Positions 21,956 to 44,065 of a DNA stretch of 45,746 nucleotides are shown one piece after another (position 1 is the first letter of the stretch; each line of letters opens with the position of its first letter). The position numbers and the translations under genes were made by a program. The stretch lies in sequence record NC_024789.1; one strand, 5' to 3'. The DNA is from Escherichia phage vB_EcoS_AKS96. The notes under the pieces were generated by a model. That model was given only the letters and a program-made list of their open reading frames with translations. It was not told the DNA's origin and ran no database searches.

Positions 21956-22001
21956 ACTATAGCAAAGGCTTCTGCTGGAGTCTTTAGCAAATCGTGCTAT
22001 T
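21956..22001 (-). promoter_or_regulatory. conserved box-plus-minus-10 cassette (copy n)
   Basis: minus strand AATAGCACGATTTGCTAAA, 23 bp, TATAGT. Confidence 0.5.
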
Positions 22002-22232
22002 TGATATACGCGTAACCGATGTAACTCGATGTATACAATCCCATACGCGGAAAATTGTATACGCTTTTTACGCGAAGATACGCATTATTTACACTATAGA
22101 ATCCTTATATAATAAGGGTTTAGAGTAATTATTATTATTACTATATTTGTTTGTATATAGTGTAACTACTCTCTATAGCTATGTTGGTGTGTTTTTCTAA
22201 AAGACTATGTTTGATTTCCTGTTAAGGAGGAA

Positions 22233-22379
22233 ATGCATATAGATATAGATAGGGTGCAAAAGTGGTGGATACATTGGTTACAAGAGTTACACTCAGTATC
22301 CATGCGGCGTACAGAGTCGCAAGACGTATTCAGGTGCGTTTTACGTAGATATACAGATAGCACGAATAATCAAAACTGA
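22233..22379 (+). CDS. small ORF (48 aa) upstream of Rha-like gene
   Basis: strong RBS aaggagg 4 nt before ATG; ends in a degenerate box copy (22357-22376). Confidence 0.3.
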   Translation: MHIDIDRVQKWWIHWLQELHSVSMRRTESQDVFRCVLRRYTDSTNNQN

Positions 22380-22410
22380 TGCTTCCTGATTGGTTATAGT
22401 GCACTCACCG

Positions 22411-22430
22411 GCAGCAGTGGTGCTGCTTTT
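22411..22430 (+). terminator. hairpin with short T-tract (attenuator-like)
   Basis: gcagca-gtgg-tgctgc tttt. Confidence 0.35.
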
Positions 22431-22491
22431 GATGCAAAAAAATGCACCACAAAATCCGGGAGTGAAAATAATTCAACCCCAAAAACTAGAG

Positions 22492-23211
22492 ATGATAGAT
22501 ATGAATCTGATTAATATTGATGAAAACGTAACCATGAGCAGCCTTGAGATTGCTGAATTGACCGGGAAGCGTCACGATAACGTAGTAAGGGATATTAGAG
22601 AAATGCTGAATGATAATGAGATATGCTCAGGATTTAGCCAATCTCACTCCTCAAATTTGAGGAGTGAAATTCAAAATGAATCTCGCGGCTCAAATGTGGA
22701 CCGCCAGATTAAACACCCATTTGAATCTGAGTACAAAAACTCAAGAGGCCAAACTCAGCCATGCTTCAACTTACCATATCGTGAAACCATGATTTTGATG
22801 GTTGGTTACAACAGAAAGGTAGCCGCAAAGATTGTTGACCGCTGGCTACACCTTGAGCGGGAAAACAAGCTCCTTAAAGAGCACATGAAGAAGATGGTTT
22901 CACTTGATGAGGTTAAGGTTTACAAAGTTGAGGCGGCATCAGCAAAGGCTGCACAGCACAGAGCTGAGGATAACTATTACGCAATTGAGAAGTTCATGTT
23001 TAAGAACATGGATAAGTGCGAAAATCCTGCAGAACTTGATGAGCAATACTTCGATGTTAAATTCGAGTCAAATCGTTACCATGACTCTCAAGAGTTGGTT
23101 TACAAGTACCAGGCTCAGCTTGAGGTTGCTTGCGAGAAGTTAAAGGCTAAAGATGATCTGATTGCCAATCTGGTGCATAAAGGCGAACCGCTTAAGCTTG
23201 GTAAAAAGTAA
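22492..23211 (+). CDS. Rha-family phage regulatory protein
   Basis: SSLEIAELTGKRHDNVVRDIREML and FNLPYRETMILMVGY resemble the phage Rha family; start chosen downstream of hairpin. Confidence 0.65.
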   Translation: MIDMNLINIDENVTMSSLEIAELTGKRHDNVVRDIREMLNDNEICSGFSQSHSSNLRSEIQNESRGSNVDRQIKHPFESEYKNSRGQTQPCFNLPYRETMILMVGYNRKVAAKIVDRWLHLERENKLLKEHMKKMVSLDEVKVYKVEAASAKAAQHRAEDNYYAIEKFMFKNMDKCENPAELDEQYFDVKFESNRYHDSQELVYKYQAQLEVACEKLKAKDDLIANLVHKGEPLKLGKK

Positions 23212-23363
23212 TCAGTAAACAAAAACGCTTCCAGTACAGGAAACAAAAATGTTGACTGTACGGTCAATAAAAATGTTGACCGTTAACTAATAGGCAAAAC
23301 CAATTGGATAAACTTAGCTACGGATGTCATAGTTAAACCACATAAACAGAGAGAGATAGAAAA

Positions 23364-23558
23364 ATGGCATACTTCATTATTCAAGAGCGAAATAACCCTA
23401 TTTTCGGAACATGTTACTACTGTGTAGATGGCTCAGGTTACACAAGCAATAAATCAGAGGCAGCAAGATTTGAGACAAAGCAGGAAGCTATTGAATACGC
23501 CCACGTGACAGATGAGGAGCTTGGTTCAGTAATGAAGATTATTAAGGTGAAGGAATAA
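23364..23558 (+). CDS. hypothetical protein
   Basis: 64 aa; conserved leader acagagagagatagaaaa before ATG. Confidence 0.4.
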   Translation: MAYFIIQERNNPIFGTCYYCVDGSGYTSNKSEAARFETKQEAIEYAHVTDEELGSVMKIIKVKE

Positions 23559-23561
23559 ATC

Positions 23562-24530
23562 ATGAGCTTCAAGGTTTACACTAGCGACGAGTTAACCAAC
23601 GAAGCCTACCACAAGGAGTCAGACCATGTGTCTGGCTCTGGTCTGGCTCACATCTTCTCAACTTGCCCCGCTGCTTATAAGTTTGCAGAGCATGATGATA
23701 GCAATAAGGCGTTAAAGTTCGGTACATTAGCCCACACGGTTATTCTTGAAAACTATGTATTCGATGCGACTTACTATCGCCAGCCAGCGCAAGAAGAGTT
23801 TGAGGATCTGATTACTAGCAAGACTGCTTTGGCAACTCGGTTGAAGTCGATGGGTATTGCTGGAACATCTGGTAAGGATTATCCAGAATTAATGGAGATT
23901 CTGGCGCTGAGCGGTGAATCACTTAACGTATGGTGGGATATTCAGCGCTCTAGCGAGGTTAAAGCGAACGGTCGCGAGATTGTATCAGCTAAAGACTTTG
24001 ACACAGTACATGCGATGCGAGAGGTGCTGTGCGGCATTCCTGCATACAATGCGATAGTGAACAGTAAAACCGCTCAGCGAGAGTTATCAATCTTCGGTGA
24101 GATTAACGAGTGCGGCGTTAAGGTTCGTCTTGACCATGTCGATGTCGTTGATGATGTAGTTTATATCCGTGACTACAAGACGACTAGCGACGCATCTCCA
24201 TCTGGATTTGGGAGATTGGCCTTCAAGCATGGTTACTTGCTAAAAATGGCGCTTCAGCATGATTTGTTTGTTCGCGCCTTTAATGAGAAGCGTCGAGTTG
24301 TTGTTCAGCTTCTTTGCCAGGAAAAGAAAAGCCCATTCCTTCCAATGTGCTACACGATAACAAAAGAGCACTTAAAGGTTGGTAGATTGCAATACATGAG
24401 CGCCCTATCCACATACAAGCAATGCAAGAAACTTGATATTTGGCCTGGTTACGGATTTGGCGAAACAGAGATGGAACTGCAAGTTCCTGAGTATGAGATG
24501 AAGAAGTACGAAGATAGCACGAATAGCTAA
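23562..24530 (+). CDS. recombination-associated exonuclease (PD-(D/E)XK type)
   Basis: 322 aa; D-x(n)-IRDYKT motif; sits upstream of Erf and SSB. Confidence 0.5.
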   Translation: MSFKVYTSDELTNEAYHKESDHVSGSGLAHIFSTCPAAYKFAEHDDSNKALKFGTLAHTVILENYVFDATYYRQPAQEEFEDLITSKTALATRLKSMGIAGTSGKDYPELMEILALSGESLNVWWDIQRSSEVKANGREIVSAKDFDTVHAMREVLCGIPAYNAIVNSKTAQRELSIFGEINECGVKVRLDHVDVVDDVVYIRDYKTTSDASPSGFGRLAFKHGYLLKMALQHDLFVRAFNEKRRVVVQLLCQEKKSPFLPMCYTITKEHLKVGRLQYMSALSTYKQCKKLDIWPGYGFGETEMELQVPEYEMKKYEDSTNS

Positions 24531-24557
24531 AACGGTATTAAATCGATGGGGTATAGT
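24514..24557 (+). promoter_or_regulatory. conserved box-plus-minus-10 cassette (copy a)
   Basis: ATAGCACGAATAGCTAAA, 22 bp, TATAGT; box contains stop of upstream gene. Confidence 0.5.
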
Positions 24558-24586
24558 TACCTCATCGACAACAAAGAGAGATAGAA

Positions 24587-25234
24587 ATGAAGACTTCAGA
24601 GAGTAACAAAACAGTTTTACAGGCACTATTTAAAGCTCGCACAGGATTTGCGAAGGCAGCAAGAGACAAGCAGAACAGTCACCTAAAGAATAGATACGCA
24701 ACACTTGATTCCATGCTGGAGGCTGTAATCCCAGCACTTGATGATAACGACTTAATGATTATGCAGAGCATGTTAGAAACATCAACTGCTGACAATCTTA
24801 ACGTAGAGACGACTCTCTATCACGTTTCTGGCGAGTGGGTTAGCTTCTTCATGATTATGCCAATCGTTAAGAAAGACCCGCAAGGAGTAGGATCTGCATT
24901 TACATACGCTCGGCGTTACTCACTAGCGGCGGCTTTGGGAATTAGTCAGTCTGACGATGATGCGCAGATGGCAGTTAAGAGCGTCAAGGACTGGAAGCGC
25001 GATATTGAGAAGGCAGAAACTCGAGAAGAGCTTATCGAAATCTACAAATCATGCAAATCACAAGCTGACACGGCAACGTGGGGTATAGTAGAGAAAGCGA
25101 TAATAGATAAACAAGCAGAGATCAAAATGGCTTCCGCAAGTGGCTTCAACCCAGCTAAGCCAAAGGAAGTCGCTAAAAAAGTTGCAAACGCAACTAATGA
25201 AGTAGTAGAATCACAATCAATCGAGCAGTTCTAA
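24587..25234 (+). CDS. erf: Erf-family single-strand annealing protein
   Basis: KQNSHLKNRYATLDSMLEAV block typical of ERF family. Confidence 0.75.
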   Translation: MKTSESNKTVLQALFKARTGFAKAARDKQNSHLKNRYATLDSMLEAVIPALDDNDLMIMQSMLETSTADNLNVETTLYHVSGEWVSFFMIMPIVKKDPQGVGSAFTYARRYSLAAALGISQSDDDAQMAVKSVKDWKRDIEKAETREELIEIYKSCKSQADTATWGIVEKAIIDKQAEIKMASASGFNPAKPKEVAKKVANATNEVVESQSIEQF

Positions 25235-25281
25235 ACTAAACGGGGCTTCGGCCCCAAAATCAAACGAGAAGAGAATATAAA

Positions 25282-25704
25282 ATGCATACTTTAACAGGCG
25301 TAATTCGTAAGGCTCCTTTCACTAAAGATGGTCAGAACGCCAAGGGTAACTGGAAGATGTACGCTATCGAAATGAGCGAATCTTATAAAACACGAGATGG
25401 AGAGCGTAAGTATAGTAATTATCGAGCTACCTTCTTTGCTAGCGAGGCGCAAATTAGCTGGTATGACGAAGCATTTCAGGAAGGAAAAGTTATCTCTGTG
25501 AGCGGCGATTCATTAGCGGTTAATGAGCGCGAACATAATGGCAAGACATATATTACGCTTGAGTTGCAGAATCCTCGATTGATGTTTAGTCAGCGAGGAG
25601 GTGAATCAGAAAAGCAGCAGCAGCGACAACAAGCTCAACAGCAACAGAGACAGCAGCCGCAGCAACAAAGCCGATTTAGTGATGAAGAGGATATTCCGTT
25701 TTAA
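25282..25704 (+). CDS. ssb: single-stranded DNA-binding protein
   Basis: 140 aa, Gln-rich linker and acidic C-terminal tail DEEDIPF. Confidence 0.8.
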   Translation: MHTLTGVIRKAPFTKDGQNAKGNWKMYAIEMSESYKTRDGERKYSNYRATFFASEAQISWYDEAFQEGKVISVSGDSLAVNEREHNGKTYITLELQNPRLMFSQRGGESEKQQQRQQAQQQQRQQPQQQSRFSDEEDIPF

Positions 25705-25716
25705 TGCAAAAGATAA

Positions 25717-25737
25717 AGCCCCTTTCGGGGCTTTTTT
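25717..25737. terminator. bidirectional terminator
   Basis: agcccc-tttc-ggggct with flanking A/T runs. Confidence 0.6.
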
Positions 25738-29507: not shown

Positions 29508-29981
29508 TTACTCTTTAGCTTTTCGTGCTTCTTCTCTTTCTTTCTTAACCTTTCGCCATGATTTACGCTGCGGCTTGGTTGCTAACTCAGCTTCTGTAAC
29601 AACTCGAAGCATCTGACGCTTCTTGCATCGCAGTGTTAGAGGCTTGCCGTTACCGTCGAACTGTAAATCAGGTCGGCAGAATGTAGCCCTGAACCCCTCG
29701 CCAGTTCGCTTATATCGATTATGCGCAAGCTGTGCGCCGCGAGCTGAAATCATTCCCCGCTTACACCATTCTTCTACAGCCTGGCGCGTAACCTTTAGCT
29801 GCTTAGCTAGATTGGCCTTGCTGCCGTAGAAGTCCAATACAATCTCAAGGCGCGCCCTTAATCCTGCTCTCACTTCATCCTTTAGTACATAGTAACCTGA
29901 TGGACGCTTACGCGGCTTCTTGTCTTCTGTGCGAATTGTTCCGTTGTTACCATTAAGAGTACGCTTGTCAATTGAATCCAT
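29508..29981 (-). CDS. basic DNA-binding protein with HTH-like segment
   Basis: 157 aa, Lys/Arg-rich; LAKQLKVTRQAVEEWCKRG helix-turn-helix-like. Confidence 0.35.
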   Translation of the reverse strand: MDSIDKRTLNGNNGTIRTEDKKPRKRPSGYYVLKDEVRAGLRARLEIVLDFYGSKANLAKQLKVTRQAVEEWCKRGMISARGAQLAHNRYKRTGEGFRATFCRPDLQFDGNGKPLTLRCKKRQMLRVVTEAELATKPQRKSWRKVKKEREEARKAKE

Positions 29982-29992
29982 TTTCTCACCTC

Positions 29993-30036
29993 AATAGCAC
30001 TTTTTGTTAAACATTGGTTTAGATGGCTGTTATTAT
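29993..30036 (+). promoter_or_regulatory. conserved box-plus-minus-10 cassette (copy b)
   Basis: AATAGCACTTTTTGTTAAA, 21 bp, TATTAT. Confidence 0.5.
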
Positions 30037-30073
30037 ATCGTCAATCGAACGAACATTAAAGGCATTTGATATT

Positions 30074-32017
30074 ATGGAAAACCGATTGAAAACAATACAA
30101 AAACAGATTGAAGAATTGGGCGAAGATAAGATTAAAGAGATTCAAACTAAATTCACCTCTTCTAACGGTATGGTTCCGTATAGCTATCAGTGTGTTATGT
30201 ACAATGAGATTGCAAAGCGCATTAGTCGCTATGAGCATCCATTTATCGCAATGGCTTCAGTTTCTGCTGGTAAGACTCTGGTTTTTGGTATGGTTGCTAA
30301 GCGTTGCTCTGAGCTTGGCTTGCCTATGCTTGTTCTTGCTCGTCAGGCAGAGCTGGTTAGCCAGAATGCTTCTGAGATTTCTGATTACGGGGTTCCTAAC
30401 TCCATTTATTGCTCTGGGCTTGGAATAAAATCATCTTATTTCCCTGTGGTGGTTGGCTCTGAGGGCACAGTAGTTGGCGGGCTTAAGAAGTCACTTGGCG
30501 ATTTCTGTCCTGCGGTAGTTGCTATTGATGAGTGTCACCATATTGATGACCAGGACATAGCGGAGGCAATTGATAACAATGAGACTGCGCAACAGGCATC
30601 AGATAAGGGGCGTAGCCAGTATACGGTCATCATCCTGACTTTAATGGAGCGCTGCCGTGCTAAGTATGGCAAGAATCTTCGTATCTTTGGACTGACTGGT
30701 TCTCCTTTCCGTGGAACTACGCCAATAGTTGTTGAAAACAAAAAGGAGTTGGGATTTTGGCGTGAGACGGTCACAAATATCGATACAAACTACCTGGTCG
30801 AGTTCGGTTCCGTGGTTCCGACAAACTTTGGTGCTACTGATGGCGTTGGTTACGACCTGTCAGAGTTTGATGCATCATCTGAAGATGGTGTTCAGGATTA
30901 CACTAAAGCCCAGCTTGAAGCCATGGATAAAAAGATCCAGGCATCTGGAACAATGACAGCGGAGATAATGAAGAAAGTATGGCTTGCCGCGAAAAACAGG
31001 AATGGAGTTCTGGTAACATGCGCAGGTGAGCGCCATTGCCACGAAGCCGCAAGTTACCTTCCTGAAGGTGAAAAGTTCTGCATTATAACTGGAAAGACTG
31101 GCGAGAAGCAGCGCAAGGAGTTGCTTGATAAGTGCTTTAGCGGGGAGATTAAATATTGCTTTCAGGTTCAGGCGCTAACCACTGGCGTAAATGTGCCTAC
31201 ATGGGATACAAGCGTTATTCTGCGTAAGATTGGTAGCCTTACGCTCCTGGTTCAGCTACTTGGTCGAGGAATGCGTAAGCTTAAGAAGCTCCATGAAGAT
31301 AAAGGAATGGTCAAGAATGACCATTTGGTACTGGACTTCGCAGGAACGATGGACTCTATGGCATCATTGTACTTCAATCCAATTCTTGAGCAGGCTCAAT
31401 ATCAGCTACGAAAGAGTAATGGCAAGGAGACTAAGCAGTGTCCAGTATGCGGAACAGAGAACAGCTTCTTTGCTCGACGTTGCATGAATATTGATGAGAA
31501 TAATAATCGCTGCGAATATTTCTGGGTTAGTCGCACATGTGAAGACCAGAAAGACCCACGAACCGGAAAGGTTATCGTTAAAGGCTGCGGAGTTCAGAAT
31601 GACGTTGCAGCTAAGATTTGTAGGGGTTGCGATTGCACTTTGCTTGATCCAAATCTCAACTTAAGCGGCAAACATTACCGCAAGAACGACTGGTTTGATG
31701 TTGTTGACTTTAAGGTTGGGCTAACAAAGAACCAATCAGGAATCATCTACAACTACATCCTTGATGATGGCATGGGTGGGACATTCAAAGCTCATGAGGT
31801 TTTCTTTGTAGAGTCTGACCATCGAGTATGTAAAACGCTCTGGTTGAACAATGGAATTAAAGGTCACGTAGTCGACATGAACGCTAAGCGATATATGGCT
31901 GCATATCGCAATGCTCGCAAGATTATGGAGTATGCGCAGTACATCCATGCTCCTAAGAGGGTAACTCACCGCAAGACCGCTAAAGGTGGCGATAATATTG
32001 CTAATAAGGAGTTCTAA
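30074..32017 (+). CDS. SF2 DEAD/DEAH-type helicase with C-terminal zinc ribbon
   Basis: Walker A SAGKT, Walker B DECHH, motif VI QLLGRGMR, CPVCG...C zinc ribbon; start set at ATG 30074 downstream of cassette. Confidence 0.8.
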   Translation: MENRLKTIQKQIEELGEDKIKEIQTKFTSSNGMVPYSYQCVMYNEIAKRISRYEHPFIAMASVSAGKTLVFGMVAKRCSELGLPMLVLARQAELVSQNASEISDYGVPNSIYCSGLGIKSSYFPVVVGSEGTVVGGLKKSLGDFCPAVVAIDECHHIDDQDIAEAIDNNETAQQASDKGRSQYTVIILTLMERCRAKYGKNLRIFGLTGSPFRGTTPIVVENKKELGFWRETVTNIDTNYLVEFGSVVPTNFGATDGVGYDLSEFDASSEDGVQDYTKAQLEAMDKKIQASGTMTAEIMKKVWLAAKNRNGVLVTCAGERHCHEAASYLPEGEKFCIITGKTGEKQRKELLDKCFSGEIKYCFQVQALTTGVNVPTWDTSVILRKIGSLTLLVQLLGRGMRKLKKLHEDKGMVKNDHLVLDFAGTMDSMASLYFNPILEQAQYQLRKSNGKETKQCPVCGTENSFFARRCMNIDENNNRCEYFWVSRTCEDQKDPRTGKVIVKGCGVQNDVAAKICRGCDCTLLDPNLNLSGKHYRKNDWFDVVDFKVGLTKNQSGIIYNYILDDGMGGTFKAHEVFFVESDHRVCKTLWLNNGIKGHVVDMNAKRYMAAYRNARKIMEYAQYIHAPKRVTHRKTAKGGDNIANKEF

Positions 32018-32406
32018 TGGTTAAGGTTTTTCACGACAAAACAAGCACGGACAAGGCTAAGGAGGTTGTTCACCAAATAAATTCAATAGCTTGGGTTCGC
32101 CACAACCATCCAGAGATATTTGCTTTTCACGTGAAGAATGAAGGTCTCAAGTCTATCGGCACAGCAATGAAGGACAAGCAGGAGGGAGTAATTAAGGGTG
32201 TATCAGATATTCTACTGATTGGACCAAATGGCTTTGCCGCAATAGAGCTTAAGCGAGCAATAAAATCAGATAGCAAGGTTTCAAAGGAGCAAAAGGAGTT
32301 CCTGGAAAAGGTATCAGAAACAGGAGGTTACGCGGCAATCTGTTATGGGTTTGAAATGTTTAAGTTGGCAATTACAGATTATCTATCAAATAGCACGAAT
32401 TGCTAA
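32017..32406 (+). CDS. VRR-NUC domain nuclease
   Basis: GVSDILLIGPNGFAAIELKRA...EQKEFLEKVSETGGYAAICYG. Confidence 0.55.
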   Translation: MVKVFHDKTSTDKAKEVVHQINSIAWVRHNHPEIFAFHVKNEGLKSIGTAMKDKQEGVIKGVSDILLIGPNGFAAIELKRAIKSDSKVSKEQKEFLEKVSETGGYAAICYGFEMFKLAITDYLSNSTNC

Positions 32407-32433
32407 AGAGATTTCGCAAGGATGCGATATAGT
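32389..32433 (+). promoter_or_regulatory. conserved box-plus-minus-10 cassette (copy c)
   Basis: AATAGCACGAATTGCTAAA, 22 bp, TATAGT; contains stop TAA of 32017-32406. Confidence 0.55.
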
Positions 32434-32464
32434 TACTTCATCGAAACGAAGAGAGAGAAACAAA

Positions 32465-32659
32465 ATGACTACTATCTACACTGAAAAGCTGTACAAGTCA
32501 CGCAAAACTGGTTATGAATATGAATTAGCAATCACCCCTGAGGGTTATATTCTTGATGATGGAGACGGTTACTCATTCGAAGTTAGCCCAACATACAAAG
32601 ATGATTTAGAGACTGTTAAAAACGCATTCGGCGAAAAATTTGATGAGGTGTCAGAATAA
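32465..32659 (+). CDS. hypothetical protein
   Basis: 64 aa after cassette leader gagagagaaacaaa. Confidence 0.4.
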   Translation: MTTIYTEKLYKSRKTGYEYELAITPEGYILDDGDGYSFEVSPTYKDDLETVKNAFGEKFDEVSE

Positions 32660-33074: not shown

Positions 33075-33118
33075 ATAGCACTTTTTGTTAAAACTAAAAT
33101 ACAAGGATGGATTATATT
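33074..33118 (+). promoter_or_regulatory. conserved box-plus-minus-10 cassette (copy d)
   Basis: AATAGCACTTTTTGTTAAA, 22 bp, TATATT. Confidence 0.5.
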
Positions 33119-33270
33119 AATTACATCAGCAAATGAGAGGGTTAAGAGATGAAAATTGTAGACAAAGAGATGTTCGAGATTGCGCAGTCTTTCGCAAATG
33201 ACGCAGTTAAGACTGGATCTGAATATTGCTGGATGTGCGCTCGAGAATATTTAAAAATGGCTTACGGCCT

Positions 33271-33510: not shown

Positions 33511-33764
33511 ATTTACCTGGTCTAGATTTTGCTGAGAGTAAGTATCAGGTTGTGTTTTTTGGTGAGAAGCCTTATCGGAAGATTCCTTTCTCTGAGTGGA
33601 TTCCTCCGGACTACCTCGATGTACTGGTGCAAATTGAGATTGGTAAAGCTGAGTTGATGTACTATTCGCCAGGTTGCAATATGATGATGCCTAGTGAGTA
33701 TTCACCAGCAATTTCTGCTCTAGAAACTGAGTTTCTTGATTACTGGCTAAAAGAAGTAAAATAG
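33507..33764 (+). CDS. hypothetical protein
   Basis: 85 aa, ATGA overlap, stop is the TAG of the next box. Confidence 0.4.
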   Translation: MNLPGLDFAESKYQVVFFGEKPYRKIPFSEWIPPDYLDVLVQIEIGKAELMYYSPGCNMMMPSEYSPAISALETEFLDYWLKEVK

Positions 33765-33803
33765 CACTTTTTGTTAAAAACATCGCCACGGATGGCGTAT
33801 AGT
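33760..33803 (+). promoter_or_regulatory. conserved box-plus-minus-10 cassette (copy e)
   Basis: AATAGCACTTTTTGTTAAA, 21 bp, TATAGT. Confidence 0.5.
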
Positions 33804-33831
33804 GTGTTCATCGAAACGAGAGACGCTTCAG

Positions 33832-33900
33832 ATGAAAACATTACTACCGTTGCTGGCGGTACCAGTAACCTTTATAATCATGTACTTCATAATCTGCTAA
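33832..33900 (+). CDS. possible 22-aa hydrophobic micro-ORF
   Basis: MKTLLPLLAVPVTFIIMYFIIC after cassette leader; very short, speculative. Confidence 0.2.
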   Translation: MKTLLPLLAVPVTFIIMYFIIC

Positions 33901-33914: not shown

Positions 33915-35051
33915 ATGGCTATCGCTAAAATCACCAACGAAGAGTTAAAGCAAGAACTGGCTAACGGTATGACTAACAAGGCAATCGCAGAGAAGTACGG
34001 TATGAATATTCGTAACGTAGAGCTGCGTCGCAGCAAGTTGGCTAAGGCTGGGGATGGTCACGGTCGCGATGTGAGTAACCTAATTCCTCAGGGCTACATG
34101 GTTAAAGGTGTATCTAGCCTTGTTGATAATGATGGCAATGTGAAGTTGCAATGGGTTAAGTCCTCTATTGATGCAGAGAAGCTTGAGGAGATGATGAATC
34201 AAGCGCGAGAGGCATTCTCTAGCGAGCTACCAAAAGAAAAAGCAGTTAAATCTGAAGGTCTGAATTTTGATGAAGATACTTTAGCTATGTATCCAGTATT
34301 TGACCTTCACATTGGCGCAATGGCCCACAAGCATGAGTGCGGAGAAAACTACGACACAGCAACGGCAGAGAAAGTAATGAACGATTATTTTGACTACGCC
34401 GTACAGAAATCTCCAAATTCAAAGAATGCTGTACTAGTGCTAGGAGGTGATCTGCTTCATTATGATTCCTTGGAAGCCAAAACTCCAGCCAGTGGTCACA
34501 TCCTGGACAGTGACAGTCGCTACGCCAAGATTGTTTATGTTTGCATTCGAGCGGTTCGCCGCGCAATTCGAAACATGCTTAGCAAACATGAAAACGTAGA
34601 TGTTAAAGTTATATCTGGTAATCATGATGAAAGTGGTATGGTTTGGTTGCGGGCTGCGCTTGCTGCATTTTATGAGGAAGAGCCACGCGTTAGTATTGAT
34701 GTTAGTCCCGCGGCAATGATGGTAACTAAGTTTGGTTCTACAATGCTTGGTTTCACTCACGGGCATCAAATGCGTAAAGCTGATACTCGCCTTTCGGTTA
34801 TGGCTACTGACTGGCGACGTGACTTTGGTTTAAGTGATTATGTATACACCCACTCAGGCCACTGGCATTCACAGAAGATTACAGAGACAAATCTTGGTAT
34901 TGATGAGGTTCATGGTCAGCTTGGTTCACCAGATGCATATAGTGCGAATGGCGGGTGGCGCTCACAAAGGCAGGCTGCGGTAATCATATATCATAAAGAG
35001 TTTGGTGAGGTTGGTCGTTTTATCTGTCGCCCAGAAATGTTTAATAAATAG
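33915..35051 (+). CDS. calcineurin-like metallophosphoesterase with N-terminal HTH-like segment
   Basis: motifs DLHIG, GGDLLHYD, GNHDE, THGH, GHWH; N-terminal MTNKAIAEKYGMNIRNVELRRSKL. Confidence 0.7.
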   Translation: MAIAKITNEELKQELANGMTNKAIAEKYGMNIRNVELRRSKLAKAGDGHGRDVSNLIPQGYMVKGVSSLVDNDGNVKLQWVKSSIDAEKLEEMMNQAREAFSSELPKEKAVKSEGLNFDEDTLAMYPVFDLHIGAMAHKHECGENYDTATAEKVMNDYFDYAVQKSPNSKNAVLVLGGDLLHYDSLEAKTPASGHILDSDSRYAKIVYVCIRAVRRAIRNMLSKHENVDVKVISGNHDESGMVWLRAALAAFYEEEPRVSIDVSPAAMMVTKFGSTMLGFTHGHQMRKADTRLSVMATDWRRDFGLSDYVYTHSGHWHSQKITETNLGIDEVHGQLGSPDAYSANGGWRSQRQAAVIIYHKEFGEVGRFICRPEMFNK

Positions 35052-35065
35052 CACAAATAGTCAAG
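35047..35065 (+). promoter_or_regulatory. degenerate box copy (f)
   Basis: AATAGCACAAATAGTCAAG, followed by terminator rather than minus-10. Confidence 0.3.
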
Positions 35066-35070
35066 AAACT

Positions 35071-35092
35071 ACCCGCGAAAGCGGGTATTTTT
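35071..35092 (+). terminator. rho-independent terminator
   Basis: acccgc-gaaa-gcgggt plus T-run. Confidence 0.6.
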
Positions 35093-35116
35093 GTTTCACA
35101 CAACTGAGGAGGTAAT

Positions 35117-35608
35117 ATGAATTGGAATGATTTTCTCGAATATAGAGATGGAAAGCTTTACTGGACAGATCCACACTCAACAAAATTTAAGCCAGGGGAT
35201 GAGGCTGGATGTAGGCATCATAGGGGTTATCATTATATAAGGAGATATAACACCACGATGTCAAGGCATAGGATAGTATGGACAATGTTTAATGGAGAGA
35301 TACCGGAAGGCATGGAGATTGATCACATAGACCATGACGTTGAGAATGATCGGATTGAAAACCTAAGAATGGTTACAAGGAGGCAGAACAATCAAAACAA
35401 AAAGCTAGATGAAAGAAATACTAGCGGACATGTTGGGGTTAGTTGGAACAAGAAGACAAAAAAATGGAGAGCAATGATAGGTATAAAGGGTAATGACGGG
35501 AAGCGGAAAACGGTATATGTTTATTATGGTGACTCTTTCGACGACGCGGTATTGGCAAGGAAGAAAGCTGAAGCTGAATACTCATTTCATGAAAATCACG
35601 GAAAATAG
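35117..35608 (+). CDS. HNH homing endonuclease with AP2-like domain (paralog of 562-1077)
   Basis: EIDHIDHDVENDRIENLRMVTRRQNNQN; GHVGVSWNKKTKKWRAMIGIKG. Confidence 0.75.
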   Translation: MNWNDFLEYRDGKLYWTDPHSTKFKPGDEAGCRHHRGYHYIRRYNTTMSRHRIVWTMFNGEIPEGMEIDHIDHDVENDRIENLRMVTRRQNNQNKKLDERNTSGHVGVSWNKKTKKWRAMIGIKGNDGKRKTVYVYYGDSFDDAVLARKKAEAEYSFHENHGK

Positions 35609-35648
35609 CACTAATTGCTAAAACACAAATCAAAAGATGGGGTATATT
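35604..35648 (+). promoter_or_regulatory. conserved box-plus-minus-10 cassette (copy g)
   Basis: AATAGCACTAATTGCTAAA, 22 bp, TATATT. Confidence 0.5.
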
Positions 35649-35681
35649 TACTCCATCAAAACAAAACGAGAGGATACAAAG

Positions 35682-35867
35682 ATGGCTAAGTTCACACAAT
35701 CAGATGCACAGATTGAAGTTAAAGATGTTGGTTTTGGTAAGACATTTCGGATTGCACAGGCTTACGGATCAAGCGAAGAAGATATCAAGGTTGATGTTAT
35801 TAACCTTACGGAGAAAAATGCAAGTGAAATCGCTTATGCAATCCTTGCGGCACTTGGAGAGCGTTAA
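35682..35867 (+). CDS. hypothetical protein
   Basis: 61 aa from ATG 35682 after leader aacgagagga. Confidence 0.4.
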   Translation: MAKFTQSDAQIEVKDVGFGKTFRIAQAYGSSEEDIKVDVINLTEKNASEIAYAILAALGER

Positions 35868-37789: not shown

Positions 37790-37793
37790 TTAA

Positions 37794-39417: not shown

Positions 39418-39597
39418 TTACTTGATACGAACTTCAATCATCTGACCTTTATGAGGAAGATACAGCTTTGCGCGACCTCTAATCATTACGGTGATGATAT
39501 TCTCCTTAAGGTCAACGTGAAGTACTTTGCGGAACAGCGGCCCCATTTTTACCATCATGCCAGGTTTGATGTTTTCGATAGTAGTCATGATATCCAT
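39418..39597 (-). CDS. hypothetical small protein
   Basis: 59-aa ORF after cassette copy j. Confidence 0.3.
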   Translation of the reverse strand: MDIMTTIENIKPGMMVKMGPLFRKVLHVDLKENIITVMIRGRAKLYLPHKGQMIEVRIK

Positions 39598-39635
39598 TTT
39601 TTAGCCCTTTTAATGTATTTCGTTTCGATGAAGAG

Positions 39636-39681
39636 AATATATCAATTTTTGTTGTTAAGTTCTTTAGCAAAAAGTGCTATT
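39636..39681 (-). promoter_or_regulatory. conserved box-plus-minus-10 cassette (copy j)
   Basis: minus strand AATAGCACTTTTTGCTAAA, 23 bp, TATATT. Confidence 0.5.
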
Positions 39682-39796
39682 AAAGACCAACCAGACATTT
39701 GCCAACTACAACAGCGATTGCGCCCATGAAGCCAAAGAAACCAAACTTAATTACTTGTTCCATTACCGCATCAACTGCTTTAGAGATGTTTTTCAT
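39680..39796 (-). CDS. hypothetical small hydrophobic protein
   Basis: 38 aa from ATG 39796 (aaggtg RBS), hydrophobic C-terminus FGFFGFMGAIAVVV. Confidence 0.3.
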   Translation of the reverse strand: MKNISKAVDAVMEQVIKFGFFGFMGAIAVVVGKCLVGL

Positions 39797-39833
39797 TTTG
39801 TTCACCTTAGTTTTTGTCTTCTTGATGGAAACA

Positions 39834-39879
39834 AATATACCCGCCGAAGCGGGTACTGTCATTAGCAAAAAGTGCTATT
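39834..39879 (-). promoter_or_regulatory. conserved box-plus-minus-10 cassette (copy k)
   Basis: minus strand AATAGCACTTTTTGCTAA, 23 bp, TATATT. Confidence 0.45.
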
Positions 39880-40434: not shown

Positions 40435-40459
40435 TACTATTTTCCTTTTTGGTTTTTTA

Positions 40460-40762
40460 TTAGTTAGCGTTATGACGTTCGATATAGTCGCGGATTGTTT
40501 CGCCTACGCTTTTAGCGGCACCAAAAGTGCCCTTTGCGTGGCGTGAATCGCGGTACGTCTGGAAGAATTTACGAGCGATGTTTGCGAACATTGAACCAGT
40601 CACGCGAGCATCACCGAAATTTGTTTCGATAGCGTTGCTAATGCCATCCTTGAACTCATTTTCAGTCATGAACATCTCTGCCATGCCAGCAGTCTCGAAA
40701 AGGTTAGCTAATTCATTCATGTTGTTATGGTCTTCGGCTGTAAACAGGTTCATGTTAATCAT
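40460..40762 (-). CDS. hypothetical protein
   Basis: 100 aa downstream of cassette copy l. Confidence 0.4.
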   Translation of the reverse strand: MINMNLFTAEDHNNMNELANLFETAGMAEMFMTENEFKDGISNAIETNFGDARVTGSMFANIARKFFQTYRDSRHAKGTFGAAKSVGETIRDYIERHNAN

Positions 40763-40796
40763 CTTCGTGATTCCTTAGTTTCGTTTCGATGAGATG

Positions 40797-40841
40797 AATA
40801 TACAATAAAAGCCCCGAAGGGCTTTAGCAATTCGTGCTATT
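40797..40841 (-). promoter_or_regulatory. conserved box-plus-minus-10 cassette (copy l)
   Basis: minus strand AATAGCACGAATTGCTAAA, 22 bp, TATATT. Confidence 0.5.
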
Positions 40842-40989
40842 TCTTTGCTGCTTTTGCAATTGCCTTCTGGACGATGTTGAAGCTCTCAATCAAATCTTCT
40901 TTGAAGTAGTCACCAACAGGCCAACCCTTACCGCTGTACTTGGCTATGGTTTCTAGATCGTAATAGTTCAAGTCAGATGGCTTTAGCAT
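40837..40989 (-). CDS. hypothetical small protein
   Basis: 50-aa ORF, start adjacent to upstream stop, own stop is the TAG of box l. Confidence 0.3.
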   Translation of the reverse strand: MLKPSDLNYYDLETIAKYSGKGWPVGDYFKEDLIESFNIVQKAIAKAAKK

Positions 40990-41229
40990 TTACTTAACCT
41001 CATCAAAAGTTGCAACACCAGGGATAAACATTCCAACCTTCCAGCCAGAGATAGCAATCCAGCCGGAATCGTGCTTGTGAGGTCGCTCAGCGCCATTAAT
41101 AACCCACTCGTTAGGGATTGTTTTACCATTAATGATTAGAGGCTCAGCGTCGTATACGGAGCCTTTTATGAATGGTGTTAATACATTCTTATCCGCGCTT
41201 TGGATAACGTTGGTGCAGCGAATCTTCAT
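40990..41229 (-). CDS. hypothetical protein
   Basis: 79 aa. Confidence 0.4.
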   Translation of the reverse strand: MKIRCTNVIQSADKNVLTPFIKGSVYDAEPLIINGKTIPNEWVINGAERPHKHDSGWIAISGWKVGMFIPGVATFDEVK

Positions 41230-41444
41230 GCTACCACCTCAATTTCTTCATTACTAACAACAAACTGTTCACCTTGAAAGATTGCAAGAGTACCATCAAC
41301 ATATACATGATCCTTTAAACTCATCATGTAGAAGCCTTCAATCTCGTAAACTTCCACCTCCTCACCAATCTGATAGCCAAGTTCGGCAAGGCTCATTGAA
41401 TCTTCGTCGTACCTAATTTCGTTGTTGATAATAATCGCTTTCAT
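41226..41444 (-). CDS. hypothetical acidic protein
   Basis: 72 aa, first gene after cassette copy m. Confidence 0.4.
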   Translation of the reverse strand: MKAIIINNEIRYDEDSMSLAELGYQIGEEVEVYEIEGFYMMSLKDHVYVDGTLAIFQGEQFVVSNEEIEVVA

Positions 41445-41472
41445 GTTTCTTCTCCTCTCTGTTGATTAGCAA

Positions 41473-41518
41473 ACTATAGCCAGTCATGGTGGATTTGTCT
41501 TTAGCAAAAAGTGCTATT
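41473..41518 (-). promoter_or_regulatory. conserved box-plus-minus-10 cassette (copy m)
   Basis: minus strand AATAGCACTTTTTGCTAAA, 23 bp, TATAGT. Confidence 0.5.
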
Positions 41519-41529
41519 CGTCAGATTTA

Positions 41530-41650
41530 TGGATTGTTGCAGGCATTGCAATGATTCGCAGTACTATTGCATCTATAGAAATATTGCATCTGTCGCAATG
41601 ATTTTCTGGACTGTTGCGAATTTAGCAATGATTGATGGATTGATGGAATG
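41530..41650. repeat. iteron-like short direct repeats
   Basis: GCAATGATT x3 (41548, 41595, 41625), ATTGCATCT x2 (41567, 41583), TGGAYTGTTGC x2, tandem ATTGATGG x2. Confidence 0.6.
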
Positions 41651-41820
41651 AAAGGAAGGGCGTATCAACTAGTTGGTTGGTTTTAGCTTTCACAAGGAGC
41701 TTTCCTTTATGTACGCGTTATGGCTTGTTCAACCGTGTAGAGAAATTGCCATATTTACGCCATCCACGCCAGTTTACGCGCTGGTTACAAAATAAATCCC
41801 TTATATAACAACCCTTTAGA

Positions 41821-41843
41821 TTTATTATTATTATTATTATTAT
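41821..41843. repeat. (TTA)n microsatellite in AT-rich intergenic region
   Basis: about 7 TTA units; shorter counterpart at 22129-22140. Confidence 0.7.
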
Positions 41844-42060
41844 ATATGTTATTCCGTAACCATGATTATCTGAGATATTGGTGATATTTTTTTGATATTG
41901 CGCGGCGCATAAAGATTTAGATAAAGAGATAGGGATGCAAGCGGGGTGGCGAAAATGGCTTAACAGACCATAACGGCAATAACAGCCTTGATACGACTAG
42001 CGTCAGCATGTAACAATTTAGCATAACGTGCGATTACCGAGTTGAACGTGTAAATAACGC

Positions 42061-42088
42061 TTGCGACATTCACCAATCATGGTAAGAT
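42061..42088 (+). promoter_or_regulatory. candidate sigma70-type promoter for plus operon 42119 onward
   Basis: TTGCGA, 16 bp, TAAGAT, then leader aaacgagagga. Confidence 0.4.
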
Positions 42089-42118
42089 GCTCTCACACCA
42101 AACGAGAGGAGTAGTAAA

Positions 42119-42634
42119 ATGAGTAATACAATTCGTGAAGCAAACCCGACACTTGGCGACCTGGTGCGGCACCTTGTTAAGATGGCTCTTAATTCAGAGG
42201 ATGGAAGCGTAACAGTTCCCGTTAAGTTGCTTTACAAGAATCTTTACGGAGAAATTGATAACGACTATGTAGCAGCTGACTTTAGACCTGGCGGCAAATA
42301 TTCACTTCCAAAGCTTAAGGCTTCCTATGTTTCAAATACAGCCAGCAGAATGCAGGAAGTTAAAGACGCAGATAAGCGCGCAAGGTTCTCTTGTGGAGAG
42401 ATGGAGTATAATGGTGATGAGCATTATTGCGTAAAAATCACAATGGTCAACGGTGCTGTTAAGAATGGAACCCGAGCTAAGACAAACAGTCAATTAGAGG
42501 AGAAAGCGGTAAGCGAGTTTAAAGCTAGGCTACTTAAGCTTTCCCCCAGCGTAGCAGGAATGAGTGGAGATGAACTGAAGGGTGCGGTAGCTATGATTAA
42601 CGCATATCAGGAAATGATTAAGGAGACTAAATAA
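42119..42634 (+). CDS. hypothetical protein
   Basis: 171 aa, first gene of operon, gagagga RBS. Confidence 0.45.
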   Translation: MSNTIREANPTLGDLVRHLVKMALNSEDGSVTVPVKLLYKNLYGEIDNDYVAADFRPGGKYSLPKLKASYVSNTASRMQEVKDADKRARFSCGEMEYNGDEHYCVKITMVNGAVKNGTRAKTNSQLEEKAVSEFKARLLKLSPSVAGMSGDELKGAVAMINAYQEMIKETK

Positions 42635-43176
42635 TGTTTGATTTCAACGAGGATAAACTTACTCATGAGCAGGTGTTAGCGGTAGCAGCGGCAGACGATC
42701 TGCCCCCATTACGAGTATCAATAATTGCAAATGGTTATCGACAATCTGCAAATATATGGCCTGAGCTGGATAAGGTCAAAGATTTTGAACTAGACAGTGG
42801 AACTTTAAAGATTACTGAAATACTCATCAAGCAAGGGATGAACTCCAAAGGCGTTGTTGGTCTCAGGTCACTATATGAGGCGGCACGCAAAGTTAAGCCA
42901 TTCGATGGGCGAAATGGAGTAATGGAGGAGATTAAGGAAGTCATCATTCCAAATCTGGATAAGCTTGGCTATGCATGCCTAATTGGCGATAAGATTTATA
43001 TCAACCCTAGATTGCTGGATGGCAAGCAGGACTGGACTTACAAGGTCAAGCCACTGGAAGATGATTTCAACATCGAGGATTGTGAGAAGGTTGTCGACGA
43101 GATTATTGTCAAGGCTATCGATGAGCAGATCGAGAAGCTCAAGCGAAAGAAGAAATATCTCCTGACCGGTAAATAG
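42634..43176 (+). CDS. hypothetical protein, short paralog of 37794-39377
   Basis: 180 aa; N-terminus MFDFNEDKLTHEQVLAVAAADDLPPLRV and internal KGVVGLRSLYEAARKV...CLIGDKIYINPRLL match the large protein. Confidence 0.5.
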   Translation: MFDFNEDKLTHEQVLAVAAADDLPPLRVSIIANGYRQSANIWPELDKVKDFELDSGTLKITEILIKQGMNSKGVVGLRSLYEAARKVKPFDGRNGVMEEIKEVIIPNLDKLGYACLIGDKIYINPRLLDGKQDWTYKVKPLEDDFNIEDCEKVVDEIIVKAIDEQIEKLKRKKKYLLTGK

Positions 43177-43216
43177 CACGAATTGCTAAACAATAAATCG
43201 GGTAGTCAGCTATGAT
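43172..43216 (+). promoter_or_regulatory. conserved box-plus-minus-10 cassette (copy h)
   Basis: AATAGCACGAATTGCTAAA, 22 bp, TATGAT; contains stop TAG of 42634-43176. Confidence 0.5.
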
Positions 43217-43247
43217 TACCCCATCAACCAAACGAGAGGAATAAAAG

Positions 43248-43481
43248 ATGATCGTAATTAACCTATCTGAAAGGCAAGCCAAAGAGATTAAAGCAGTACT
43301 AATGCATTGCCTTAGCCGCAAGATGTTTAGCGCGTCAGAATCGCTTACAGAGGTTGTAAATCAGATTCGAAATCAGGAGTTTGAAGATATACTGCCGTGG
43401 GAAGAGGACTTGGCCTGGCTTGAGTACGAGCAGATTTGCACGGCACTATCAGGCTGCCAACTGGATAGCCAATACAAGTGA
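43248..43481 (+). CDS. hypothetical protein
   Basis: 77 aa after leader aaacgagagga. Confidence 0.4.
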   Translation: MIVINLSERQAKEIKAVLMHCLSRKMFSASESLTEVVNQIRNQEFEDILPWEEDLAWLEYEQICTALSGCQLDSQYK

Positions 43482-43599
43482 CAATCTACGAACACACATT
43501 CAGCAGCAGGGGTATCGATATGCTCCTGCATTACGTAGACGAGAGATACGCCATGTTAATGCAGAAGACGCATGGCGGCACTATAACGAGGGTTGAGAT

Positions 43600-43722
43600 A
43601 TGTACTACTATATGATTCCTGTTGAAGATTTGATTCGTGATTACAGTCACGGCTACATTGCTGTATGCGACGCTGATACAATGACTGCATATGTTGACTT
43701 TGACTTTGAATTTGAGGATTGA
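43600..43722 (+). CDS. hypothetical small protein
   Basis: 40-aa ORF; start context gagggttgagatATG mirrors that of 43726. Confidence 0.25.
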   Translation: MYYYMIPVEDLIRDYSHGYIAVCDADTMTAYVDFDFEFED

Positions 43723-43725
43723 GAT

Positions 43726-44025
43726 ATGAGTAAGTACGAAAAAGAGATTATTGGCCTGGACGGCACCAAGACTACGGTTGATGTATATCGCGTCATCGCA
43801 GCATTTGGCGTAACGGACCCGGCACTACAGCATGCCATCAAAAAGGTACTGTGCAGCGGCATTCGAACACGACATAAGGATTACCCTACCGACATCAATG
43901 AGGCCATTGTATCGCTTCAGAAGGCCATAGAATTCCATGATCAAAGGGGTGCGCATGTCCAGGAACTTATAGACAAGTATCGCAACGGACCTAAACATTA
44001 TCTTGATAGCTGGAGCAACAAATAG
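43726..44025 (+). CDS. hypothetical protein
   Basis: 99 aa, stop is the TAG of box i. Confidence 0.4.
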   Translation: MSKYEKEIIGLDGTKTTVDVYRVIAAFGVTDPALQHAIKKVLCSGIRTRHKDYPTDINEAIVSLQKAIEFHDQRGAHVQELIDKYRNGPKHYLDSWSNK

Positions 44026-44065
44026 CACAAATTGCTAAACATCCATCGCAAGGATGCGTTACCAT
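44021..44065 (+). promoter_or_regulatory. conserved box-plus-minus-10 cassette (copy i)
   Basis: AATAGCACAAATTGCTAAA, 22 bp, TACCAT. Confidence 0.45.

Follow-up and report, generated by a model that had tools for sequence, protein, structure and literature searches.

Marbox Promoters of the Host and the Repeat of T1-like Phages

The systems closest to the element described here are Escherichia coli promoters that are activated through a marbox, a 20-bp asymmetric site bound by a monomer of the AraC/XylS family, namely MarA, SoxS or Rob, or RamA in Klebsiella and Salmonella. The marbox consensus of Martin et al. 1999 reportedly reads AYnGCACnnWnnRYYAAAYn. In class II marbox promoters, a forward-oriented box overlaps the -35 element (PMC12052159). 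In the cryogenic electron microscopy structure of Rob on micF, the G of the GCAC 'A site' is located at -47 and the 'B site' overlaps the -35 element (PMC9178005), and the soxbox on micF is centred at -41.5 (PMC9638938). Both Rob and SoxS, when bound at micF, either displace or make contact with sigma region 4 and the alpha C-terminal domain (PMC9178005, PMC9638938). Here, we analysed the genome of Escherichia phage vB_EcoS_AKS96 (NC_024789.1; the whole stretch is called the window below), in which an intergenic cassette consisting of a conserved box, a -10 hexamer and a shared leader recurs on both strands. An original prediction from the nucleotide sequence had listed 13 full and two degenerate copies and had interpreted them as activator-dependent promoters built around a palindrome. 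We consider it probable, if well short of certain, that the cassettes are class II promoters that depend on the host activators MarA, SoxS or Rob by way of a consensus marbox.

The repeat itself has already been published. In the re-annotation of phage TLS (2024), a 21-nt direct repeat, aaATAGCACnnnTTGnTAAAA, was described in 21 co-oriented copies about 76 nt before start codons and was divided into A, T and G subgroups by its central triplet (PMC11447400). The TLS authors, who had seen the repeat in T1, Rtp and Rogue1 as well ("unpublished observations"), detected no more than three sigma-70-like promoters in TLS and suggested that the repeat might function as stoperators, enhancer-binding sites or UP elements (PMC11447400). 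The box in the window is the same element, with the same consensus, GAA/TTT/AAA spacer subgroups, intergenic location, co-orientation and distance to the start codon. The fixed -10 element, the start site, the leader and the marbox identity do not appear in the TLS paper and are added here. The identity with the marbox appears to be new: no link between phages or the Drexlerviridae repeat and the marbox or MarA/SoxS/Rob was found in a literature search whose scope did not include the original T1 (2004) and Rtp (2006) genome papers.

The window is the complete genome (45,746 bp) of a T1-like virulent coliphage of the genus Rogunavirus. A 7-kb piece of it showed 99.3% identity to Escherichia phage vB_EcoS_AHP42 and 92-99% identity to C119, phiKP26, Rogue1 and JK06 (Rogunavirus, Drexlerviridae). 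Structural genes are located at 1-21 kb, and genes for recombination, replication and lysis, together with many small early genes, at 21.9-45.7 kb. At the level of annotation, these virulent phages carry no integrase or repressor, and the promoters annotated in records of the AHP42 group are only generic TTGACA/TATAAT look-alikes. In the laboratory, T1-like phages are both classic objects of study and notorious contaminants, and their Klebsiella relatives (Webervirus) are common candidates for phage therapy. It has so far been unclear how transcription is started in T1-like phages, a gap that marbox promoters, if this interpretation is right, would fill.

Copies and Architecture of the Cassette

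All 13 listed copies of AATAGCAC-N3-TTGYTAAA were present in the window with at most two mismatches, compared with 0.10 expected in shuffled sequences. The copy at 24514(+) contained two mismatches and the copy at 39878-39861(-) one. The degenerate copies at 22357 and 35047 were both real, and an additional box-only copy, which was not on the earlier list, was found at 29514-29531(-). Two further weak matches were located at 17251, within coding sequence at the start of the tail-fibre gene and probably due to chance, and at 42017(-).

Fifty-two box-anchored cassettes from the window, T1 and Klebsiella phage RAD2, representing three genera, were aligned. The order was the same everywhere: box, about 20 nt, -10 hexamer, C-rich discriminator, leader, Shine-Dalgarno sequence and ATG. 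At the expected distance, 47 of the 52 cassettes had a hexamer whose second base is A and whose sixth is T, while the chance expectation for such a hexamer is about 6% per cassette. The gap between AAA and the -10 hexamer was 20, 21 and 19 nt in 38, 6 and 3 of these 47 cassettes, respectively, in agreement with the earlier statement that a -10-like hexamer lies 21-23 nt past TTGCTA, which equals 19-21 nt past TAAA. G at -14, the key base of the extended -10 element, was present in 40/47 cassettes, A exactly 7 nt past the hexamer in 41/47, and C just before this A in 33/47. Because C-A is the canonical -1/+1 pair, the leader AUCGAAACGA... begins at the predicted +1. The shared leader was likewise borne out, as the conserved A is followed by a TCGAAACGA-like sequence across the 47 hexamer-anchored cassettes.

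In the window, the C-A start was found in 10 of the 13 full cassettes. The predicted 5' untranslated regions of the 13 full cassettes are 22-34 nt long and reach the start codons annotated in AHP42, and the distance from box start to ATG is 69-86 nt; for the cassette at 33075, 33149 was taken as the start of the open reading frame (ORF), since the automatic pick was an internal ATG. Judged from ORF ends, 10 of the 13 full copies and the degenerate copy at 35047 have the stop codon of the upstream gene inside the box or overlapping it, which gives the 11 copies reported earlier. With a spacer of 16-18 nt, the best match to TTGACA was only 2-3/6 in 37/47 cassettes, the same as at random positions in the window.

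As to the original idea of activator-dependent promoters with a palindrome near -42 and no -35 element, the missing -35 element, TATAnT, G(-14) and the C-A start all speak for it, while the palindrome did not hold (see below). These features support a reading of the cassettes as early-gene promoters of the phage that would be sigma-70-like and dependent on an activator bound near -42. The promoter TTGCGC-N16-TATAAT, which had been pointed out ahead of the capsid gene, is present at 7293-7320, and no reverse-oriented box occurs there, unlike in T1.

The Box Matches the Marbox in Sequence

When compared with the Martin consensus up to its last Y (AYnGCACnnWnnRYYAAAY), all 13 full copies had at most one mismatch, always at this last Y, and 16 matches were found in the window compared with 1.17 expected. 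The marbox has been defined by the Grainger laboratory as gcannwwntgnnaaa (PMC12052159), and 12 window copies fit this definition exactly. The copy at 35608 agrees at 15/15 positions with the consensus from MarA chromatin immunoprecipitation sequencing (ChIP-seq), 5'-gcactaattgctaaa-3' (PMC5684230). A host-only position weight matrix was made from 28 of the 33 MarA ChIP-seq sites in the published Table 1. Under this matrix, the phage boxes were the top 14 matches in the window, with scores of 17.2-20.1 bits, and random sequence contained 0.05 matches at 17 bits or more. The host sites themselves, scored by leaving one out, had a median of about 12.5 bits and a maximum of 19.6 bits. In matrix score the phage boxes equal or surpass the best sites of the host. 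The central triplet is also constrained, with A/T at position 9 in 51/52 copies and at position 10 in 52/52 copies, which corresponds to the 'ww' of the marbox. The marbox of the mar operon, read forward, is ATGCCACGTTTTGCTAAATC, and phage copies agree with it at every one of the right-hand 13 nt.

The box had been described as an inverted repeat. Among the 52 copies, only positions 2-6 and 12-16 are symmetric, while A1, C7, T11, A17 and A18 are complementary in 0-12% and are as conserved as the symmetric positions. G4, C5 and A6 are invariant, G13 is near-invariant and C7 is present in 49/52 copies; the mirror position of the invariant G4 is C in 35 copies and T in 17. The host marbox consensus has the same partial symmetry. 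A true palindrome or dimer operator was rejected on this symmetry test. The box is asymmetric and, in full cassettes, always co-oriented with transcription, like the marbox, and such asymmetry is the expectation for a monomer with two helix-turn-helix (HTH) motifs such as MarA, SoxS or Rob.

Geometry of the Cassettes Relative to Host Promoters

With positions given relative to the predicted start sites, the gap of 20 +/- 1 nt places G4 at -47 and the centre of the supposed palindrome at -42. In E. coli MG1655, the micF promoter (ACAGCACTGAATGTCAAAAC) has 20 nt from AAA to TAGAAT, the fumC promoter 19 nt to AATAAT and the ybjC promoter 21 nt to TACAGT, the latter two hexamers having been picked from the sequence in this analysis. 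Every full phage copy, on both strands, reads from GCAC to AAA towards the -10 hexamer and the ATG. The cassettes have the consensus site, the forward orientation, the overlap with -35 at a fixed distance from the -10 element, and the weak or absent -35 element of class II marbox promoters. Like micF, fumC and ybjC, they combine a forward 20-bp asymmetric marbox, made up of a GCAC 'A site' and a YAAA 'B site', with a sigma-70 promoter in which the box replaces the -35 element, is centred at about -41 and ends 19-21 nt before the -10 hexamer. They differ from these host promoters in that phage genomes of 46-50 kb carry 13-22 boxes, while host sites are degenerate, and in that the phage boxes are fused to upstream stop codons and terminator hairpins. 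The phage cassettes would also serve early and middle genes of a virulent phage and not stress genes.

Class I promoters of E. coli (mar, fpr) carry a reverse-oriented marbox upstream of a recognisable -35 element, and two orphan phage copies have a similar arrangement. In the window, 26 nt separate the reverse-oriented copy at 42017-42034 from TTGCGA-N16-TAAGAT downstream of it, ahead of the first rightward early gene. It reads ATCGCACGTTATGCTAAA on the minus strand and has no downstream -10 element in its own direction, and the leader with which the rightward transcript would begin, ACACCAAACGAGAGG, is cassette-like. In T1, the orphan copy at 103-120 is located 15 nt upstream of TTGATT-N17-TATGAT, the same gap as in the mar class I promoter. 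The orphan copies may therefore reproduce the host class I rule, with predicted promoters downstream of them. In comparison with mar, the gap in the window is about one helical turn longer, the phages have only one such copy per genome, and their promoters are predicted ones.

Conservation of the Box in Other Phages

The absence of the motif from related phages had been named as a result that would count against it; the motif is present in T1, RAD2, 2019SD1 and Vc1. The box is near-invariant across Drexlerviridae genera, with 22 copies in T1, 15 strict cores in RAD2, 6 copies in 2019SD1 and at least 10 in Vc1, while the proteins of these genera have diverged to 45-60% identity and the Cro-type regulator to 36-60% identity. 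An invariant box together with a diverged regulator is the pattern expected from constraint by a conserved host protein. The Vibrio phage Vc1 has both the box and the regulator, so the contrast in host range does not discriminate between a host and a phage reader. About 20 records labelled 'Campylobacter phage' (e.g. A118, A15a) encode typical T1-like proteins, so that these host labels look doubtful, and the V. cholerae label of Vc1 calls for the same caution.

IMG/VR was scanned for the exact box. Almost all contigs with multiple copies were of Drexlerviridae size, and the exceptions, of about 41.5 kb, were Enterobacteria phage IME_EC2 and its relatives (Murrayvirus). In IME_EC2, a podovirus-type virion module is joined to a T1-like replication module. 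Its genome contains seven strict marbox cores (0.13 expected), all co-oriented with genes and with a gap of exactly 20 nt to TATAGT, TATATT or TAATAT. The IME_EC2 cassettes at 62+, 28250-, 36213- and 37521- have their own conserved leader, with a GC-rich stem-loop near +1 (e.g. ACGGCGGGAAATGGTCCCGCCAC), and this stem-loop leader stands in place of the T1-like ATCGAAACGA leader. As the T1-like leader is absent from these cassettes, it is not part of the function of the box. The primase and helicase genes of IME_EC2 abut, without a regulator gene between them. The PHROG families of the Cro-type regulator and DUF7174 were not found among the 20 IME_EC2 ORFs tested (77-319 amino acids), and no PHROG family was common to these ORFs and 10 early proteins of the window. 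As far as tested, the conserved unit is box, spacing and -10 element, which are separable from the T1-like leader and from DNA-binding proteins.

Single cassettes were also observed in larger genomes. Pantoea phage Vid5 (61 kb) carries one complete cassette. Two IMG/VR contigs, L057 (178,768 bp) and L067 (176,227 bp), carry one cassette each with the full T1-type leader ATCGAAACGAAAC, and in one of them a terminator hairpin stretches the gap between box and -10 hexamer to 31 nt. These two cassettes could reflect horizontal cassette transfer or an assembly chimera.

In T1 (15062-15092 and 18833-18850), Vc1 (5713-5727) and 2019SD1 (9014-9028), reverse-oriented boxes immediately precede late genes, namely those for the major head protein and the tape-measure chaperone. 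In T1, a reverse box fills the spacer and overlaps the -10 element of a good late sigma-70 promoter, TTGACG-N16-TATTAT. Such an arrangement is a repression geometry for a marbox-binding protein and could form part of an early-to-late switch.

Host Activators as the Proposed Readers of the Box

E. coli encodes MarA, SoxS and Rob. A homologue of these proteins was not found in the phage, with a best tblastn E value of 0.84 and a best profile hidden Markov model E value of 0.39 among 569 stop-to-stop ORFs, the profile being made from the three E. coli sequences. The marbox sequence identity, the asymmetry, orientation and spacing of the box, the lack of a -35 element, the conservation across genera and the lack of a phage MarA homologue are observed, and from them we infer binding, activation, the start sites and the identity of the acting host protein.

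Once the phage DNA has entered the cell, transcription would be initiated at each cassette by host RNA polymerase with the help of a marbox-binding activator. The box would be occupied at about -50 to -31, in forward orientation and in place of a -35 element, and, by analogy with Rob and SoxS on micF, the bound protein would make contacts with sigma region 4 and with the alpha C-terminal domain. RNA polymerase would then use G(-14) and TATAnT and start at the conserved A 7 nt past the hexamer. As the phage encodes no such activator, host proteins would drive the early and middle operons. Rob would be the likely default, since it is constitutively present and, unlike the other two, abundant in the absence of stress, and MarA, SoxS or RamA would add to Rob when induced under stress. 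The cassettes would split the early region into short units, with the box placed over the stop codon of the previous gene, and in some copies (39861-, 40823-, 35047+) a GC-rich spacer hairpin abutting the T-rich -10 element would terminate the upstream unit.

Several points weigh against host activators. T1-like phages grow fast in ordinary broth. In unstressed cells, Rob is described as largely sequestered and inactive without inducers, and MarA and SoxS are scarce (PMC5684230). The phage boxes are more uniform than host sites, with A-T-A at positions 1-3, T-T at 11-12 and T15 nearly invariant where marboxes of the host show variation; this uniformity could point to a more exacting reader than MarA, SoxS or Rob, or perhaps in part to the embedded TAG/TAA stop codons. 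IME_EC2 shares the T1-like replication module, so a small shared protein is possible. The box is carried by Vibrio phage Vc1, whose stated host, according to the depositor's label, is V. cholerae, and two phage proteins with possible DNA-binding folds exist. The case for host activators is built from sequence comparison.

Alternative Explanations

A phage-encoded activator might read the box, either the Cro-type regulator (29508-29981), the DUF7174 product or an unrecognised small early protein, the likeness to the marbox being mimicry or coincidence. We regard this as unlikely. The original prediction had favoured the HTH protein at 29508-29981 or the Rha-like protein as activator, and both fit poorly. 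The HTH protein has a single Cro-type domain, and a dimeric single-HTH protein should read a symmetric site, whereas the conserved positions of the box are asymmetric. Rha was rejected, since no Rha gene is annotated in the box-bearing phages T1, RAD2, Vc1 and IME_EC2. The box agrees with the host system in fifteen base positions, in orientation and in its 20-nt spacing, and it does not co-vary with the divergence of the regulator between genera. IME_EC2 keeps the box and its spacing without a detectable homologue of the regulator or of DUF7174, and its 20 ORFs tested have no PHROG family in common with the 10 early proteins of the window.

T4 middle promoters, which depend on MotA and AsiA, are a described case of activation by phage proteins. 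There, too, the box replaces the -35 element and the activator works with sigma-70 region 4, and the tTGCTaaA of the phage box is superficially like a MotA box. However, the MotA box is centred at about -30 and is 11-13 nt from the -10 element, while the window box is centred at about -41 and ends 20 nt away, so that a T4-type middle promoter was rejected. T4 itself encodes MotA and AsiA; Pfam and PHROG scans of the early ORFs, which included no dedicated search for MotA or AsiA, yielded no family with a transcription function beyond the Cro-type regulator and Rha.

Two structural observations on the phage proteins are given for completeness. Residues 1-30 are the most conserved part of the Cro-type regulator family (invariant D5, R7, N10-G14, R17, D20 and R24) and are predicted to be disordered (pLDDT 54-62); this N-terminus may be a docking motif for a partner protein. 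The product of the DUF7174 gene (42119-42634) gave weak winged-helix (RepE/CtsR-like) structural matches.

The box might instead be a negative element, that is, a stoperator, a repressor operator or a termination marker, with the -10 hexamer belonging to an independent promoter. Stoperators were among the suggestions of the TLS authors, whose repeats are intergenic and co-oriented (PMC11447400), terminator hairpins follow several boxes, and the reverse box of T1 covers the spacer and -10 element of a late sigma-70 promoter. The best comparison is with the stoperators of mycobacteriophage L5, which are likewise many asymmetric sites co-oriented with transcription in short intergenic gaps. In a temperate phage such as L5, the prophage repressor binds these sites and thereby stops elongation, and their distance to a -10 element is not fixed, whereas the present phages are virulent, have no annotated repressor or integrase, and keep a distance of 20 +/- 1 nt in 47/52 cassettes that a stoperator does not need. 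An independent promoter would also lack an alternative -35 element, and most window cassettes have no spacer hairpin. A negative element is therefore improbable.

A protein-independent element, either UP-element-like or an unusual -35 element read directly by host RNA polymerase, has a similarly slim chance. An UP element was also among the TLS proposals (PMC11447400), TTGCTA matches TTGACA at 4/6 positions, and G at -14 gives a partial extended -10 character. The conserved core covers -47 to -33, and its GCAC half-site is already upstream of where a -35 element would be. An UP element is rich in A and T, but the box has G4, C5 and G13 at invariant or near-invariant positions and also retains C7. 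TTGCTA is located 21-23 nt from the -10 element, outside the 16-19 nt that sigma-70 tolerates between -35 and -10. An UP element in the strict sense, an A/T-rich tract at -40 to -60 upstream of a working -35 element, was rejected.

A sigma-54-type promoter (TGGCAC-N5-TTGC) deserves hardly any credence, since TAGCAC-N3-TTGC resembles the -24/-12 consensus only superficially, with the elements 2 nt too close and AG in place of the critical GG, which contradict it, and with the conserved -10 element, G(-14) and the C-A start left unexplained. Even taken together, the negative-element, protein-independent and other readings are unlikely.

Implications of the Proposed Host-Dependent Early Promoters

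If MarA, SoxS or Rob do act at the cassettes, infection would be wired to the stress state of the host, such as exposure to bile salts, salicylate or superoxide, or the condition of multidrug-resistant mutants with upregulated efflux, and phage gene expression would be tied directly to the regulators of multidrug efflux and porins. This would be unusual for a virulent phage, which would rely on a host stress activator and not on a factor of its own. Growth defects would be predicted on rob marA soxS mutants, and infection should be modulated by salicylate, paraquat, bile salts and dipyridyl. Clinical marR, ramR and soxR mutants might show altered susceptibility. With 13-22 top-affinity sites on each copy, the phage DNA would titrate the MarA/SoxS/Rob regulators as it replicates and possibly dampen the stress response of the host, and the reverse boxes over late promoters of T1 could turn this titration into an early-to-late timer. 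The cassettes would also be a source of very strong, compact promoters responsive to MarA, SoxS and Rob. More tentatively, it is quite possible that the Drexlerviridae as a whole and at least Murrayvirus, a genus whose virion is unrelated, have almost no autonomous early promoters and have placed their early and middle programme on host stress-activator sites, following both the class II and the class I rules.

Features of the Window

The coordinates of the cassettes and related features are given in Table 1.

Table 1. Cassettes, box copies and predicted promoter elements in the 45,746-bp window.
Feature	Position	Strand	Box	-10 element	Predicted +1	Start codon and remarks
Full cassette	21915..22000	-	22000-21983	TATAGT 21961-21956	21949	ATG 21915 (Cor-like lipoprotein gene)
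Degenerate cassette	22357..22428	+	ATAGCACGAATAATCAAA 22357-22374	TATAGT 22395-22400		Hairpin and T-run, then Rha-like gene
Full cassette, 2 box mismatches	24514..24589	+	24514-24531	TATAGT 24552-24557	24564	ATG 24587 (Erf recombinase)
Box-only copy	29514..29531	-	GCACGAAAAGCTAAA, 17.3 bits			3' end of Cro-like regulator gene, then terminator hairpin
Full cassette	29994..30076	+	29994-30011	TATTAT 30031-30036	30043	ATG 30074 (helicase)
Full cassette	32390..32467	+	32390-32407	TATAGT 32428-32433	32440	ATG 32465; upstream stop in box
Full cassette	33075..33151	+	33075-33092	TATATT 33113-33118	33125	Gene start 33149
Full cassette	33761..33834	+	33761-33778	TATAGT 33798-33803	33810	ATG 33832
Degenerate cassette	35048..35119	+	ATAGCACAAATAGTCAAG 35048-35065	TATTTT 35086-35091 (weak)		ATG 35117 (HNH endonuclease)
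Full cassette	35605..35684	+	35605-35622 (core GCACTAATTGCTAAA)	TATATT 35643-35648	35655	ATG 35682
Full cassette	39595..39680	-	39680-39663	TATATT 39641-39636	39629	ATG 39597
Full cassette	39794..39878	-	39878-39861	TATATT 39839-39834	~39827	ATG 39796
Full cassette	40760..40840	-	40840-40823	TATATT 40802-40797	40790	ATG 40762
Full cassette, first leftward early promoter	41442..41517	-	41517-41500	TATAGT 41478-41473	41466	ATG 41444
Possible class I arrangement	42017..42121	+	42017-42034 (reverse-oriented)	TTGCGA 42061-42066, N16, TAAGAT 42083-42088		ATG 42119 (DUF7174 gene)
Full cassette	43173..43250	+	43173-43190	TATGAT 43211-43216	43223	ATG 43248; inverted repeat flanks -10
Full cassette	44022..44100	+	44022-44039	TACCAT 44060-44065	44072	ATG 44098

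The box-only copy at 29514-29531(-) has no -10 element at 20 nt, and the cassette at 29994 is divergent from the Cro-like regulator gene (29508-29981). The stop codon inside the box at 24514 belongs to the exonuclease gene, and the gene behind the 39680(-) cassette forms an operon with the DUF3987 primase/helicase gene. Three marbox-like sites at 5222, 5438 and 5762(+), with scores of 14.2-16.0 bits, are co-oriented in the 3' part of the prohead protease/scaffold gene; they all lack a -10 element at 20 nt and are possibly chance matches or decayed copies.

Several cassettes contain hairpins. In the spacer of the cassette at 35048, the hairpin CCCGCGAAAGCGGG and a T-run constitute a terminator that is also annotated in AHP42. 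The spacer hairpin CCCGCTTCGGCGGG of the 39878(-) cassette abuts the -10 element, and the terminator hairpin GCCCTTCGGGGCTTTT is located in the spacer of the 40840(-) cassette. In the degenerate cassette at 22357, a hairpin with a T-run, AGCAGCAGTGGTGCTGCTTTT, follows right after the predicted +1 (22395-22430, +), within the leader. It looks like an attenuator or terminator, and a terminator is annotated in AHP42 at the equivalent position. In a scan with Rfam gathering thresholds only the tRNA was matched, so that the leader was rejected as a member of a known RNA family.

An inverted repeat flanking the -10 element was observed in about one third of the cassettes, with the 5' arm in the spacer and the 3' arm made up of the end of the -10 element and the discriminator. 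Examples are T1 2269+, 3535+, 4344+ and 47616-, RAD2 8092-, 27242+ and 31170+, and window 43173-43230. Its frequency was high among the cassettes of T1 (7/18) and RAD2 (7/15) but low among those of the window (1/14). The arms differ between cassettes yet stay complementary, with -5.7 kcal/mol for cognate and -3.2 kcal/mol for non-cognate duplexes (p = 8e-4).

Behind the cassette at 33761, an unannotated ORF at 33832-33900(+) encodes a hydrophobic peptide of 22 amino acids, MKTLLPLLAVPVTFIIMYFIIC, and is followed at 33915 by the gene for a 378-amino-acid phosphoesterase. The large divergent intergenic region at 41520-41850, next to the DUF7174 gene, contains iteron-like direct repeats, with three copies of GCAATGATT (41548, 41594 and 41625) and two copies of ATTGCATCT, as well as a (TTA)n run at about 41822-41845. 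This region may be an origin, a pac site or an operator region.

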